From an uncultured Aliarcobacter sp. (lineage in GTDB: Bacteria; Campylobacterota; Campylobacteria; Campylobacterales; Arcobacteraceae): a DNA stretch of 64,000 nt. The DNA lies in assembly GCA_963664305.2 (NCBI GenBank), contig CAXXLV010000002.1, positions 1,472,001-1,536,000 on the forward strand, written 5' to 3'. Made by a program: the position numbers. Positions 34,001-40,000 of this stretch are shown in pieces (positions within the stretch are counted from its first letter, which is position 1; each line of letters begins with the position of its first letter).

Positions 34001-37000
34001 TCCTTCTTTATCTTCACCTGATGTATATTTTGTAACTACAGGATTACACTCATCAATCCATTTATTAATTCCATAAATTTTTACAGTGTTAAATCCCATT
34101 TGTCTAAAAGCTTGAGCTTCAAGTGATGCTCTTGCAGCTGTATTACAAACAACTATTAAATTTGTTTTTACAAACTTTTCATTGTCATCTAAAACAATAT
34201 TTTCTAAAGCTTTTTCAGGTGCTTCACGCCCTACTCTTTGAGAACCTTTAATAGCAGCTGCTGACCACTCTTCCATAGTTCTTACATCAACAACAGCCCA
34301 ATCACTTTTTGTTAATGCATCTTTTACTTCTTGAGTAGTTGCATAAAGTCCATCTTTTTTTGCTTCTTCTTTTAATTTTGTTGTTAAATTATGATAATTA
34401 ACAAAATCAGCAGCAAACATAGTTGATGCTAAAAATCCAGCTGTTAATAAAACTTTTCCTAATTTCATATATCTCTCCTTATATAAAAACCTCTTACTAG
34501 TTTCAGTAATTAGTTAAATAGAGTCTATATGAACTTAGTTTAAATTATAATAAATACTTATATTAATTTTATTAATACAAATTATACATTTTTTTAATAG
34601 TACTCTTTACTATTATCTAATCTACAATATAAAACCTCGTCAACAACAGCTTTTGCAATATGATTTGTTGCAACGATAATATGTTCTAGATTTAAACTTT
34701 TTAGAGATTCTTTCTCTTCATCTGTTGTTACATTTACAATAGTTTTACTATTTTTTGTTAAATCTCCAACTGCTTCACAAATTAAATGTAAAATTTCTGG
34801 ATTATTAACAGCAACAATAACAGCAGACGATTTTGTAATATTTAAAGAATTTAAAATATGTTTTTGGGCTGCATTTCCAAAAATAATTGGTTCACCTTTA
34901 TCTTTACCTTCTTGGTAAAATTTTACATTATGTTCTAAAATTACGTAATTTTGACCAAAGTTTTTTAACTCTTCTACTATTGCTTGTCCAAATCTTCCAT
35001 ATCCTAAAACTATTACATGATTTTCTAAATCTTCAGAAACATGATGTGTATTTGTAATCATCATCACATCTTCAGGCATAAGTTTTGCTGCTGCTTTAGA
35101 TAAATTTTTTAATATGATTGGAGTTAAAATCATAGAAATTACAATTGTTACAATCAAAATTTGTGAATTTGTTGTATCAATCAAACTTTGACTTCTTGCT
35201 AATTCTAAAATTGCTAGTGAAAACTCTCCAATTTGAATCAAAGAAAGTGCAGTTTTAAATGCAACTCTTTTATTGTCTTCATATCTTACAAGTGCATAAA
35301 TTACTCCAAATTTTAATGCCATTACAAGTGGTAATAAAACTAAAATTACTAAAATATAATCTGCAATTATTTTAAAGTTTATTTGCATACCAACCGTTAT
35401 AAAGAAAACCCCAAGGAGTATATTTCTAAAGGGAATAAGGTCAGCCTCAACTTGATGTTTAAACTTCGTTTCTGCAATCATCATACCAGCTATAAAAGCT
35501 CCTAGAGAATATGAAAATCCAAAATAATATGCTAAATATGCAGACCCAACAGCAAGAAGTAAAACAGAAGCAACAAAAAGTTCATCCGATCTTGTTGCAG
35601 ATACATATCTTAAAAATGGTTCAAGTAAATATTTTCCACTAAAATACAGTAAAGCTAGTAATATAACTGCTGCAAGCACAGTTTTTCCTATTGTAAAAAT
35701 ATAAGTACTATCATCACCTTTCATAGAAAAAAATGAAATCATAAGCAAAATAGGAATTACTGCAATATCTTGCATAATTAAAATCCCTAAAACTCTTCTT
35801 CCATATGGTTTTGTAATCTCTTTTGTTTCATTAAATGTTTTTAAAACTATTGCTGTTGAAGATAAAGAAAGAGCTGTTCCCATGATTAAAGAAGCAGGAG
35901 TATCAAATCCTAAAATAAATTTTGATATTAAAAATACAAAAAATGCTGTTACAATTATTTGTAAACTACCCGTGAAAAAAACTTCTCTTCTCATCTTTTT
36001 TAGATGATTTAAAGAGAATTCTAATCCAATAGTAAACATTAAAAATACAACTCCAAACTCAGCTATTTCTTTTAATTCATGATTATTTACAGCTTCATGA
36101 AGATTAAATGCATAAGCTATTATTGTTCCAGTTAAAATATATCCTATAATTGTTGGTAAATGTACTTTTTTAAGTATTAGATTTAAAAATAGAGCAATTG
36201 AAGTTGCCGCAACAATAATTCCTAACATAAAACTCCTCTCTTATTTATAATGCATTTGTTTGTATCCCTCTAACCTTTTTTTATAGGCAGAGTTTAACAT
36301 CGCATTCTTTGAATCTAAAAAATCTATTGCTAAGCACTCTTGATTTCCACGTCCAATTCGACCTAAATATTGAATTAATCTTCCATAATAAGAGATTGGT
36401 GTTGCGAACATTATAGTATTTAAATGTGGGAAATCTATACCTTCACCAAAATATGAAGTAGTTGCAAGTATAAGTGATTTAGATTTTACTAAATTCATAT
36501 TTTCAACTTGCTCTTTTTTATTTTGACTTCCATGTACACTGATATAATCAATATTTTCTTTTTGCAATAAATTTTCTAAAATATTTATATGTTCTATTCT
36601 ATCAGTTAAAACTAAAATTTTTCTTTCAATATTGTTTTTTATTGCATAAATTATTAAATTATTTCTATTTTCATCAACACAAAGCTCATTTATAATAGTT
36701 GCATAGTTATCGGCTTCGCTACTAAATTCTGTTCTAATTATTTGTAGTTTATTTGTATGTGTTCTTTTCTTTTTATATTCATAAGAAATCTCACCCAATT
36801 GTTGATATAAAATAGGTTGTAATTCATCTTTTCTATTTGGTGTTGCACTTAAACCCAAAATATATCTACCCTTAAAACTTTTGATAATTTGTTCAAAAGT
36901 AAGTGCTGGAATATGATGGCATTCATCAACTATTACAAAAGAGTAATTTTCAATAATTTTTGGGTCGTTTTTTAGACTTTGCATAGTTGCAACATCAATT

Positions 37001-40000
37001 TGACCATTTAATTTATTGTGACCTTTTCCTAAATATCCTATATCTTTTTTAGAATATCCAAAATAATCCACAAATCGTTCAATCCATTGATTTAAAAGCA
37101 TATTTTTATTTACAACAATAAGTGTCGAACAAGCTCTTAGTTCAAATATTTTTGCTCCAAGCAGAGTTTTTCCAAATCCAGGAGGTGCAACACAAATAGA
37201 ATAATCAGATTTTTTTATCTCTTTTATTGCATCATTTTGTTCTGGTCTTAGATTAAAAGTTACTTTTTTTGTCTCTACTTTGTTAAAAACTCTTTTATCA
37301 ACAAATGAATAAGAAACTGCATTTGAATTAAAAAAATCAACAATTTTTTCTTTTAATCCTCTTGGAAGAAGTAAATATTTTTCATTTTCTTCAAAAGACC
37401 TTATATATTTTGGAGTATTAAAAAGTGGTTTTCTTAAACTTAGTAATACTTTTATTTGAGGATTTTCAAAAGTTGCAAAAGATTTTAATTTACTAATCAA
37501 TGATTTTGATAAATTATACATTGGTATATAAATATAATCTTCCAAAATTATCTCTATTTTTTCAAGTGGAAAATCTATTTTCTTTAAATCTTTTTCTACA
37601 CTTATTGCCGTTGGAATTTCTGCAAAATTACAAATTGTTTGTTTTGAAACTTTTGAAACATTGGCTAAAACACTCCATTGGTCTTCATAAATTTTATTTG
37701 TATTCATATCTATAAAAATGGTTCTATTTTTATCTCTATGTTTTAAATGAAGTGGTAATTCAATACAATTTCCTAAATTTTCTTTAGTTGCAAACTCTCT
37801 ATTTGGATAAGTTTTTGCACTGATATTTGCTTTTTTTAAAACATATAAAGTAAAATTAAAAGCTATTTTAGATGAGATTTCTTCTTCAAAAAATATCCAA
37901 ACAAAAAGTGAATTATAGGAACTCAATTCATAATATGCTTTTATATTTAAAGAATTTAGAGTTATTTGAAGTTTGAATTTATCCTCATCAGCTATTTCAA
38001 AAACTACAAACTTTGACATATTTTTTTGATTTATACAATAAGTTGCTAAAAAACTATTTCCTCTTAAATGCTCTTCAATTTCATAATTTGTTAAAGGCAA
38101 ATAATCTTCACCTTGAAAAGTTTTTGTAACTGGATAAAAGCCTTGTTTTTGTCCATCTTTACTTACCCATTTTTTTGCAAAAATATCAAAGCGCCCTATA
38201 AATAAAGATTTAAAAAGTTCTATTTTTTCATCTTTTGATAAGTTTTTTTTAATAAGTATATTTTTTTGTTTAATTTGCTCTTTTAGAAACTCTATTTCAT
38301 CATCTATTTTATTCTTTTGAATATAGAGTTCTTCTAATCTTTTTTCAAGATTTTCCATCATAACCAATCAAAGATAAAAAATTTTCAACAACTAAAAATG
38401 AACCAAAAACTAAATATTCTTCATTTTCTTCTATTTTTATAGTTTCCTCTTTCATCAGATTTAATTGTTTTATAACTCTTTCCAATTCTTCTTTTTTTAC
38501 AATTCTTTTATCATCAAGTTCAATAATTGCTATTTTTTTAATTATAGGTTCTAAAATTTTTAAAACCGTTTCATAATCTTTATCTCCATAAGAGTTATAG
38601 ATAAGATTTATTTTTTTATCTTTAAATTCATTTACAATAACTTGAGCTGCAAGTGGATTATGTCCCACATCTATAGTCACATTTGGCAAAATTCTTTGGC
38701 ATCTTCCAAAAAGTGGCGTGTCATCAAAAAGTTTTAAATCAATAGAAATTTTTAATTCATTTAAACATGCTATTACTAAGTGTAAATTTCTTTTTAAATA
38801 TGAAGCAAATTTATCATTTAAAGAGTACTTGTCAAAGTCTTTAACTTCAATAATTTCTATATTTTTATCTCTTTCTTTTAAAATTTGTTTTTTTACTTCA
38901 TACGCTGTTTTAATAACTTCATCATAAACTTGATAACCAATAATCATTTTGTTATCGCATGAACGCATTTTTGTAGCTGCTATTTCTTCAAGTGTGTTTC
39001 CTAAAAAACTCTGATGATCAAGACCAATTGTTGTTATTAATGAAATATCATTTGGAACAACATTTGTTGCATCAAATTCCCCACCAAGACCAGCTTCTAA
39101 AACTAAATAATCAAAATCTTTTGATAAATAAAACGCTATTAGTGTTGTATATTCAAAATAAGTCAGTTTTTCAAGAAGTTCTATTTCATATAAATTTTGC
39201 AAAAATTTGTGAGCAATTTCAAGATTTTCATCACTTACATCAAATCCATTTATCCAAATTCTTTCATTGAATTTTAAAATATGTGGAGAACTATAATGTA
39301 AAACTTTATAATTTTTTTTATATAAATAATGAGATAAAAATCTTCCTGTACTTCCTTTTCCATTAGTACCAACTATATGAATTACAAAAGGAAGTTTTAT
39401 TTTTGTAGATAAGATATCCCAAGAAGATTTTACATAACTAAAATCAATTTTATCATAATAAAGAGTTTTATATTTCAAAAACTCTTCAAGATTTAGCTCT
39501 TTTAAATTCATAATATTTATCTAAATGAAGCTACTGCTATTTTTGATAAGATTTCATCTACAGCTTTATTTGATGCATTTGAAATTGCATCAAATCTATT
39601 TGAATCAGTCAATGTTGTTCCAATATCAATTGAGAAATCATATTCTCCTTCAACTGTAAATGATTTTTTTATTCCATCATCTTTTCTAAAATAATCAACT
39701 TTTATTACAACCATTGCATTATAAAGTTTATTATATCCTTCTTTATCGTATTGTAATGTTGATATTTTTACTGAACTAATTCCTAAATTCATAATTACAT
39801 CTGCTTTATTTCTATCATTTACTATTTTTGAATCAAGCTTTTGAAGTAAAATTTTATTTACAGCATCTTTCACTAAAACAGAGTTTCTTGGGTCTTCTAA
39901 ACTAACATCTAGTTTAATGAAAACATTTCCTTCCATCTCTTTTTTAGCATAATAAGTTGAAGGTTTATACCCACATGCACTAATAAAAAAAGTCAAAGTT

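Follow-up and report, generated by a model that had tools for sequence, protein, structure and literature searches.

The gene studied here lies on the minus strand at positions 36241..38361 of the window, the 64,000-nucleotide stretch of chromosome that was analysed, and was assigned to the IEE/AEP-TOTE family from its open reading frame, translation, Pfam matches and colinearity with IEE. The open frame extends over 36241..38367 (-) and, with the ATG at 38361 as start, encodes 706 residues followed by a stop, without internal stops. In window coordinates the gene follows folC in a row ordered leuS-lptE-folC-gene-antiporter. The first members are leuS (40047-42512) and lptE (39517-40041), and the upstream neighbour folC (38345..39511, -; TIGR01499, 7.1e-77, 259 bits against a cut-off of 162.65) overlaps the AEP-helicase gene by 17 nt; the coordinates confirm both the overlap and the row given in the preliminary description of this locus. 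A gene for a CPA2 cation:proton antiporter with a TrkA_N domain (34594..36228, -; Na_H_Exchanger, 1.1e-60; TrkA_N, 5.3e-21) begins 12 nt downstream. The only strong terminator-like hairpin in the minus-strand row, found in a consensus scan, follows the rhodanese gene at 33910..33944 (-) and has a 16-pair stem and then a T-rich tail, suggesting that leuS to rhodanese form one transcription unit. The row had been described as kept through the genus, and this is borne out by the 27 genus loci: folC and the AEP-helicase gene are immediate neighbours in 24, M23 peptidase and bactofilin genes separate them in the remaining 3, and the antiporter directly follows in 24. The GC content of the gene (0.23-0.26) is the same as that of its flanks, and no tRNA, Rfam match, meaningful flanking repeat or mobile gene was found near it.

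The protein comprises four contiguous segments. The N-terminal helical segment (residues 1-44; 38230..38361, -) is retained at the N terminus of 475-residue orthologues that lack the AEP domain, and weak matches to coiled-coil Pfam families in the AEP-less forms indicate that it is probably a coiled coil, which might also support oligomerization. It is followed by the AEP domain (residues 45-244; 37630..38229, -), which matches Pfam AEP-TOTE (PF22548) at 2.4e-54 and 184.8 bits (cut-off 27; 188.2 bits in the genome-wide search) but has lost its active-site residues and is predicted to be catalytically dead. The middle region (residues 245-365; 37267..37629, -) has no Pfam match; it is conserved family-wide and appears to be part of the helicase module, the alignment with a T5-like D10 helicase beginning at residue 318 and that with AfXPB at residue 339. 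The SF2 ATPase/helicase core (residues 366-706; 36244..37266, -) has intact motifs and is matched by ResIII (residues 369-510, 2.4e-26), DEAD and Helicase_C (residues 569-672). PADLOC identifies a PrimPol (2.1e-36, residues 28-290) and mREase_IV (4.5e-16, residues 377-681), and a PDB search with the protein as single query returned 6p4f (2.5e-19, residues 367-526), 2fwr (5.1e-13) and 7nqf (2.5e-7, residues 46-242). The earlier Pfam, PADLOC and PDB values for an AEP-TOTE and SF2 helicase fusion of 706 residues were accordingly reproduced.

Fusions of this type are numerous: a family search matched 1057 representatives with E<=1e-30; the 150 that were listed are for the most part full-length fusions. 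The characterized member is IEE, the IS-excision enhancer of E. coli O157:H7, described as a 786-residue protein with a Z1568-like AEP domain and an SF2 helicase-like domain (PMC9943667). In BLASTP, O157 IEE is colinear with residues 41-706 of the present protein (29% identity, E 2e-106). IEE is reported to be a Mn-dependent polymerase with end-joining activity that acts on IS elements; its catalytic residues are given as D142, D144, D216 and H178, and the D142A/D144A protein is the catalytic-deficient mutant (PMC9943667). For MpCAPP, the combined D177A and D179A substitutions are reported to abolish polymerase and primase activity (PMC8211822).

The catalytic residues, which the preliminary description had left unchecked in proposing a PrimPol that reprimes, have been replaced or deleted. 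At the place of motif A (DxD), codons 122-124 (37990..37998, -) read E-I-A, with E122 and A124 at the positions of IEE D142 and D144, and the accessory paralogue reads D-L-D. At codon 153 (37903..37905, -), where motif B has its histidine, F stands instead of IEE H178, and the alignment with MpCAPP agrees. Motif C, with IEE D216, is gone through a 9-residue deletion whose junction lies at codons 182/183 (37813..37818, -) in the alignments with IEE, with an accessory paralogue and with the family. All four catalytic residues are kept in 121 of the 135 family representatives of 640 residues or more. Active representatives have Asp at both motif A columns, His at motif B and Asp at motif C (121/121 each), whereas among 42 orthologues of the chromosomal core clade, 30 of them from one genus, Asp occupies neither of the motif A columns in any and His the motif B column in 2, and all 42 have a gap at motif C. 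In a table covering 17 genera, the catalytic residues are absent from all core-clade orthologues and kept in all 9 accessory copies. With retention in at least 80% of the core orthologues (n = 42) as the threshold for a kept column, 18 of the 38 family-conserved columns survive in the AEP domain, as compared with all 4 in the middle region and 42 of the 47 in the helicase. The AEP columns lost are the catalytic and nucleotide-binding ones, SGxG included, and replacement residues are themselves conserved in the core orthologues (A106 in 41/42, K183 in 39/42). The acidic residues beside motif A in the studied species (E122, D125-D127) are not conserved across the clade.

Because all four catalytic positions have been lost, we propose that the protein cannot prime or polymerize; the AEP domain is predicted to be catalytically dead and the protein not to be a primase-polymerase. 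A catalytically active PrimPol that works with an XPB-like helicase to reprime and open DNA at stalled forks would fit the strong AEP-TOTE match, the purifying selection on the AEP domain (see below) and the polymerizing and priming activities of the relatives IEE and CAPP. It would have to function with one catalytic position removed by a deletion common to 42/42 orthologues and with its SGxG nucleotide-binding residues gone as well, and it does not explain why three genera deleted the AEP domain and kept the rest of the gene; we consider it very improbable. The 706-residue protein is probably a DNA-remodelling motor rather than a repriming enzyme.

The motor itself is well preserved. SF2 motifs I, II (DECH), III (SAT) and VI are kept in every row of the 17-genus alignment, and alignment A1 shows no variation at G397, K398, T399, D479, E480, Q664 and R668. 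When the family profile was compared with the PDB, the matches were XPBII (7.7e-48), AfXPB (6.4e-40), MpCAPP (7nqf, 2.6e-34), UvsW (2oca, 4.6e-32) and RadD (1.6e-29). A T5-like D10 helicase aligns end to end with residues 318-706 (26% identity, E 3e-25); D10 is described as a branch-migration enzyme (PMC5180179). The scores against models of individual families are low: 59.2 bits against a cut-off of 610 for the NCBIfam XPB model NF045503, 24.9 against 328.7 for rad25 (TIGR00603), 81.7 against 200 for PrimPol_Msp (NF040561) and 54.3 against 720 for RadD (YejH), for which nothing in the genome was above the cut-off. An Atlas lead to UvsW_N (0.86) had no Pfam match even at E<=10. XPB proteins are characterized by a RED motif after motif III and by DRD and thumb domains; R510-K511-D512 aligns with R-E-D of AfXPB, and R510 is invariant in A1. 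The name XPB-like given earlier holds only in the sense of a broad subgroup of SF2 and not as a family identity. The helicase-like domain of IEE is reported to hydrolyze ATP and not to unwind tailed duplexes (PMC9943667), and "helicase" may therefore overstate the activity of the present protein.

A match to the gene is present in all 44 genomes of the genus. Full-length, stop-free copies with 65-91% identity occur in 42 of the 43 other genus genomes, and the remaining one (G020, 74% complete) has a 289-residue piece at a contig end. The earlier statement of genus-wide occurrence is upheld, PF22548 being present in 42 of the 43 other genus genomes; for the other Arcobacteraceae the recount is 126 of 183, which replaces the earlier 118. 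The folC-linked chromosomal copies from across Arcobacteraceae form a single clade with support of 100/100; the sister is a clade of accessory copies. The divergence of the gene keeps pace with that of folC and the antiporter.

Selection on the gene is purifying, with the dead AEP domain included: dN/dS is 0.36 for the N terminus, 0.16 for the AEP domain, 0.25 for the middle region and 0.09 for the helicase, as estimated from 557 non-independent pairs drawn from 42 sequences, with dS near 0.9. The single clade, the constant neighbourhood and this selection support a domesticated, vertically inherited chromosomal gene and not a gene of a mobile element or defence island, as had been suggested. 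That the lineage relies on it as part of its core DNA metabolism was too strong a claim. The gene is absent from 22 of 184 Arcobacteraceae genomes (17 of 152 when only those of high quality are counted) and from 10 of the 28 genomes of one genus, and two genomes (G125 and G052) have this locus with exactly the gene missing, which indicates that it is dispensable.

In three genera the AEP domain has been removed by in-frame deletion and the rest of the gene retained, and the AEP module therefore appears dispensable too. PF22548 was found in 0 of 11 genomes of genus g7, 0 of 5 of g8 and 3 of 28 of g13, as against 11/11, 4/5 and 18/28 for the helicase. In the 475-residue forms the N-terminal helix is kept and the sequence resumes at about residue 270; forms of 641-647 residues with internal AEP deletions also exist. 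The stepwise series from dead site through internal deletions to full AEP deletion and gene loss might be taken for the decay of a functionless relic that is heading for loss. A relic would hardly have an unbroken frame in 42 of the 43 other genomes of the genus, dN/dS values of 0.09 (helicase) and 0.16 (AEP domain), and invariant helicase motifs, and we give this explanation almost no weight.

A different possibility is that the gene is a fixed conflict or defence gene, in which the helicase and a non-catalytic AEP domain sense or act on phage DNA, plasmid DNA or IS intermediates. AEP-TOTE is catalogued as a conflict-system family, and the TOTE system is described as TPR, OB, TBP and Effector, with TPR-OB/CSD and TBP-like proteins as partners (PMC12458937). 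Plasmid-borne relatives were found in 105 records, 41 of them conjugative, and the accessory sister clade adjoins AbiEi/AbiEii, zeta toxin, HipA, Fic and integrase genes. The action of IEE on IS elements and the dispensability of the present gene in several lineages point in the same direction. Against this stand the single origin and the housekeeping neighbourhood fixed since the base of the family, as well as strong purifying selection without the turnover of the accessory copies; of the 9 genomes of the genus with an accessory copy, at least 3 have it in broken form. In addition, a Pfam search of the 12 neighbouring ORFs (27.6-45.8 kb) found no effector, cas or toxin-antitoxin partner and no TPR-OB/CSD or TBP-like domain. 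On balance a defence function seems rather improbable.

The explanation that we favour, with a probability of roughly 0.7, is that an IEE-type fusion was captured, its AEP domain died and its motor was kept as a translocase or remodeller of host DNA. The gene would have originated in the mobile IEE/AEP-TOTE family, in which an AEP primase-polymerase is joined to an SF2 ATPase, and would have been fixed in the chromosome of the Arcobacteraceae ancestor, to be passed on from then by vertical inheritance. Destruction of the polymerase site, by loss of the motif A DxD and the motif B histidine and by the 9-residue deletion of motif C, would date from the same ancestor, and the AEP fold, N-terminal helix and complete ATPase motor have been retained under purifying selection. 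The sole catalytic activity predicted is DNA-dependent ATP hydrolysis by the XPB/UvsW/D10/RadD-like motor, which may drive translocation on, or remodelling of, duplex or branched DNA of the host chromosome, such as forks, D-loops and junctions. The dead AEP domain may be a module for DNA binding or positioning. The sequence analysis establishes the architecture, the homology, the missing catalytic residues, the vertical descent and the selective constraint; the absence of polymerase activity, an ATPase or translocase activity and an action on host DNA are inferred.

Nearly all bacteria are described as having RecG (PMC3542137). No RecG was found among the 184 Arcobacteraceae genomes, and nearly all the other sampled Campylobacterales have it, suggesting that the 706-residue protein may have a RecG-like role; RadD was not detectable in Arcobacteraceae. 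A more specific proposal is that RecG was replaced non-orthologously at the base of Arcobacteraceae, the captured and polymerase-silenced IEE-type motor taking over fork regression and branch migration and the dead AEP domain serving for junction recognition as the counterpart of the RecG wedge. We put this forward tentatively and regard it as unlikely.

AEP-helicase fusions are known to be common and have been catalogued, and one member, IEE, has been characterized. What is new is a conflict or mobile gene that has become fixed in the chromosome of a bacterial family, with its polymerase chemistry apparently lost, and that seems to have been kept for its motor. The accessory paralogues within the same genomes provide an internal control, and the natural series from active to dead site, deleted AEP domain and lost gene could show what a non-catalytic primase domain gives to a helicase. 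The absence of RecG from Arcobacteraceae, some of which are food-borne and water-borne opportunists, leads to a testable idea on the processing of stalled forks in these organisms.

Among known systems, IEE has the same domain order, a middle region that is conserved in both proteins, and the Walker A lysine (IEE K451, K398 here) and arginine finger. It differs in that D142, D144, H178 and D216 of IEE correspond to E, A, F and a deletion, in a Cys-rich insert that the 706-residue protein lacks, and in its location in a mobile region (AlpA, IS66, DUF3987) instead of a housekeeping row. The accessory AEP-helicase paralogues of Campylobacterales (732-745 residues), carried on megaplasmids in, for example, A. 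cibarius, A. cloacae, A. cryaerophilus and A. faecis, are the sister clade and are 43-46% identical along their whole length; like the chromosomal protein, they have the N-terminal helix and no Zn-finger insert. In contrast to the chromosomal gene, they retain DxD, SGxGxH and the Asp of motif C, and they adjoin AbiEi/AbiEii and other toxin-antitoxin or mobile genes; accessory copies from different families are nearly identical, and broken copies are frequent. MpCAPP (7nqf) has the closest solved AEP domain, but CAPP is active and is reported to sit with cas1 and cas2 (PMC8211822), whereas Pfam finds no cas neighbours here. Among solved structures, archaeal XPB and XPBII (2fwr and 6p4f) match the motor best, although the protein is far below the XPB family cut-offs and has no known Bax1 or TFIIH context. 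T5 D10 and T4 UvsW share the SF2 motifs, and the alignment spans the whole helicase module; these phage proteins lack the AEP domain and N-terminal helix, and their branch migration has been demonstrated, whereas the likeness of the 706-residue protein to them is one of sequence.

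The window gene is a minus-strand ORF of 706 codons at window positions 36241-38361, with an ATG start at 38361. Its product includes an AEP-TOTE domain (residues 45-244; Pfam, 2.4e-54) and an SF2 helicase (Pfam ResIII at residues 369-510 and Helicase_C at 569-672). The gene shares 17 nt with the end of folC and belongs to a minus-strand row in the order leuS, lptE, folC, window gene, CPA2 antiporter, rhodanese; the only strong terminator-like hairpin of this row follows the rhodanese gene. The ORF, the Pfam domains, and the folC overlap were all re-derived, bearing out the gene, domains, and row of the preliminary description, and its PADLOC and PDB search figures were reproduced. 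The base composition of the gene is that of its flanks, in which no tRNA, Rfam family, or meaningful repeat was found, the repeats detected around it being short, AT-rich, chance-like pairs. A promoter scan gave no useful signal (39 sites, compared with a mean of 57.3 in shuffled sequence), and public RNA runs contain just 5-7% of sampled words of the sequence. Over folC, the window gene, and the antiporter gene, 28-30 of 30 bins are covered by metatranscriptome contigs from four wastewater libraries of two studies (at least 88% likeness); because these contigs represent mixed relatives and DNA carry-over is possible, they do not demonstrate transcription. Convergent to the row is a gene for OlsF, a bifunctional ornithine-lipid synthase (window 32212-33924, plus strand; NF052615, 833 bits against a cut-off of 620), and upstream of leuS lie genes for a DUF6394 protein (42512-42856, minus strand) and a Cache_3-Cache_2 methyl-accepting chemotaxis protein (43422-45791, minus strand). 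A literature search found no paper about the window gene in Arcobacter.

All 44 genomes of the genus Aliarcobacter match the window gene. Among the 43 others, 42 have an intact full-length copy with 65-91% identity, and the remaining one has a piece at a contig end. Across the family Arcobacteraceae, a match at E ≤ 1e-40 is found in 162 of 184 genomes and in 19 of 22 genera; among the 152 genomes of high quality, 135 match. Outside the family, in a sample of 301 Campylobacterales, 6 of 276 genomes match residues 250-706; the frames containing these six matches range from 299 to 758 aa, with 39-51% identity, and two of them are short and lie on small contigs. folC adjoins the gene in 24 of 27 genus loci, and the antiporter gene comes after it in 24. 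In the other three, as well as in several other genera, genes for an M23 peptidase and a bactofilin intervene between folC and the helicase gene (L036, 4756-9733; L008, 3608-4872; L070, 3166-4463), and so it is the neighborhood, rather than the exact neighbor, that is conserved. The intervening genes presumably resemble the cell-shape (csd/ccmA-type) cluster of helical Campylobacterota; in genus g13 they are followed by a second M23 peptidase gene and then lpxC, and the species of the window lacks the M23 peptidase and bactofilin genes at its folC locus. Upstream of the copies in genomes G135 and G132, what looks like an AEP remnant overlaps the bactofilin gene.

In a phylogeny built from the shared helicase region (53 rows, 437 columns), the 32 folC-linked copies, from 17 genera, all fall into one clade (ultrafast bootstrap 100, SH-aLRT 100). 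The sister of this core clade consists of accessory copies of 732-745 aa, which are present in 9 of the 44 genus genomes, at least three of these copies being disrupted by stop codons, and are found on megaplasmids in named species of Aliarcobacter and Arcobacter. The accessory copies directly adjoin AbiEi (5.8e-61) and AbiEii (1.2e-108), with a zeta toxin, HipA, Fic, transposases, and an integrase nearby, and those from different families are almost identical. A cassette of AbiEi, AbiEii, and an AEP-helicase with an intact active site recurs on Aliarcobacter and Arcobacter megaplasmids and in other Campylobacterales families (L031-L035 and L057-L059; plasmid records H1-H6), several copies being broken by stops. 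The wider family comprises 1057 representative clusters at E ≤ 1e-30, and relatives occur on 105 plasmid records, 41 of them conjugative. The AEP-helicase fusion as such is common and mobile, consistent with what is reported of non-CRISPR CAPP homologues (PMC8211822).

The active site was located by alignment with the IS-excision enhancer (IEE) of Escherichia coli O157, using as reference the 786-aa frame from the EDL933 plasmid record, the numbering of which is identical to that of the published protein (786 aa). In the AEP domain of IEE, Asp142, Asp144, and Asp216 are reported to bind metal and His178 to bind nucleotide, and D142A/D144A is the catalytic-deficient mutant (PMC9943667). Residues 41-706 of the window protein align with IEE with 29% identity (E 2e-106); Asp142 is replaced by Glu122, Asp144 by Ala124, and His178 by Phe153, and Asp216 falls within a 9-residue gap of the window protein. 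Alignment with an accessory paralogue (AEP domain, 39% identity, E 3e-59) confirms the lost residues, MAFFT alignments agree on them, and an alignment with MpCAPP agrees on the histidine. A conserved Gln-Asp pair was considered as motif C and ruled out, since Asp216 is the third carboxylate according to the IEE paper. In MpCAPP, the corresponding double Asp-to-Ala change is reported to abolish polymerase and primase activity (PMC8211822). We accordingly predict that the primase domain of the window protein is dead. All four catalytic residues are retained in 121 of 135 representatives of at least 640 aa, whereas the window protein and its three clade representatives do not retain them. Six representatives outside the Arcobacteraceae clade (P0179, P0186, P0208, P0213, P0247, and P0266) lack at least two of the four, so that silencing of this domain may have happened independently elsewhere in the family. 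The IEE preprint makes no mention of Arcobacter or of inactive forms.

Loss of the active site could reflect either general decay of the domain or its retention as a pseudoenzyme. An alignment set 42 chromosomal orthologues (30 belonging to a single genus) against 121 active representatives. Columns conserved across at least 90% of the active representatives number 89; counting a column as kept when at least 80% of chromosomal copies retain it, the AEP domain keeps only 18 of its 38, the middle region all 4 of its 4, and the helicase 42 of its 47. The AEP columns lost are catalytic and nucleotide-binding, scaffold positions are kept in 40-42 of the 42 copies, and the residues that replace the lost ones are themselves conserved. 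By region, pairwise Nei-Gojobori dN/dS is lowest in the helicase (0.09), followed by the AEP domain (0.16), the middle region (0.25), and residues 1-44 (0.36); the estimates draw on 557 pairs that are not independent of one another and have a dS of about 0.9. The window protein thus appears to be a pseudoenzyme and not a product of decay. The motif C deletion, present in 42 of 42 chromosomal orthologues, points to one inactivation event in their common ancestor.

Further reduction is seen elsewhere in the family, in which PF22548 is found in 127 of the 184 genomes as against 162 for the helicase. The orthologue is shortened to 474-483 aa in genera g7, g8, and g13; the N-terminal helix is retained and the sequence resumes at about residue 270, which represents an in-frame AEP deletion. 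These short forms cluster in the tree (support 68/91), consistent with a single deletion event. Smaller deletions inside the AEP domain occur in forms of 641-647 aa. That the N-terminal helix mediates oligomerization is a guess. The gene is precisely missing at the same locus in G125 and G052 and is missing from three genera, most with small genomes.

The preliminary description proposed a domesticated PrimPol-XPB enzyme that couples repriming to DNA opening. The single clade with 100/100 support, the synteny, and the dN/dS values favor domestication, but the lost catalytic residues argue against repriming. On the best reading, the window protein would be a member of the IEE family that was exapted, with its primase domain silenced and its XPB/UvsW/D10-like motor still at work on host DNA; all structural statements made here about the protein are drawn from its sequence.

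In the window's genome, the RecG model matches Mfd alone (window 27662-30649, minus strand); the genome also encodes PriA (905 bits) and RuvB, and no RadD was found in it. With the TIGR00643 profile, no RecG orthologue was found in the 184 family genomes, Mfd being the only protein among the 150 matches listed, beside which there were 22 further ones; the listed matches start at profile position 194-225 in a frame of about 1000 aa, the Mfd pattern. A genuine Campylobacterales RecG (608 aa; NF008169, 876 bits) used as query gave the same outcome, Mfd only. In the order-wide sample, at least two matches are found in 111 of the 122 genomes that belong to other families, namely Mfd and a RecG-type frame of about 600 aa that covers the whole profile, and 9 of 9 family genomes have a single match; the curated cut-off of the RecG model was reached in neither search, and RecG and Mfd were told apart by profile coverage and frame length. 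Judged by titles, no paper on the absence of RecG from Arcobacter came up in a literature search. Many recG phenotypes are reported to be complemented by UvsW (PMC2699526), and an E. coli recG radD double mutant to barely grow (PMC7470958), which makes a RecG-like role of the window protein plausible. This is the boldest of the readings. Against it stand two points: gain of the gene and loss of RecG are one coincidence on the tree, and the genera without the window gene also lack RecG.

Motifs I, II (DECH), III, and VI are intact in all copies. Against the PDB, the family profile matches archaeal XPBII (7.7e-48), AfXPB (6.4e-40), the SauUSI-like 7clg (8.4e-39), T4 UvsW (4.6e-32), RadD (1.6e-29), and RecG (2e-12). 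The window protein scores far below the curated family cut-offs for XPB, RadD, and CAPP; it is a member of an XPB/UvsW/D10-like SF2 subgroup, orthologous to none of these three. For UvsW_N there was an Atlas lead (score 0.86) that Pfam did not support. Elsewhere in the window's genome, a 944-aa frame (G000:C1:977100-978233) resembles SauUSI-type (type IV restriction) helicases and is the top match of the RadD model (95.5 bits, under the cut-off); similar frames occur in most genus genomes. The C-terminal domain of IEE is reported to be a DNA-dependent ATPase, abolished by K451A, and to hydrolyze ATP without unwinding tailed duplexes (PMC9943667), so that translocation or remodeling is a safer term than unwinding. 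A T5-like D10 helicase aligns with residues 318-706 of the window protein (E 3e-25), and D10 is reported to unwind forks and junctions by branch migration and to have XPB and UvsW as its closest homologues (PMC5180179).
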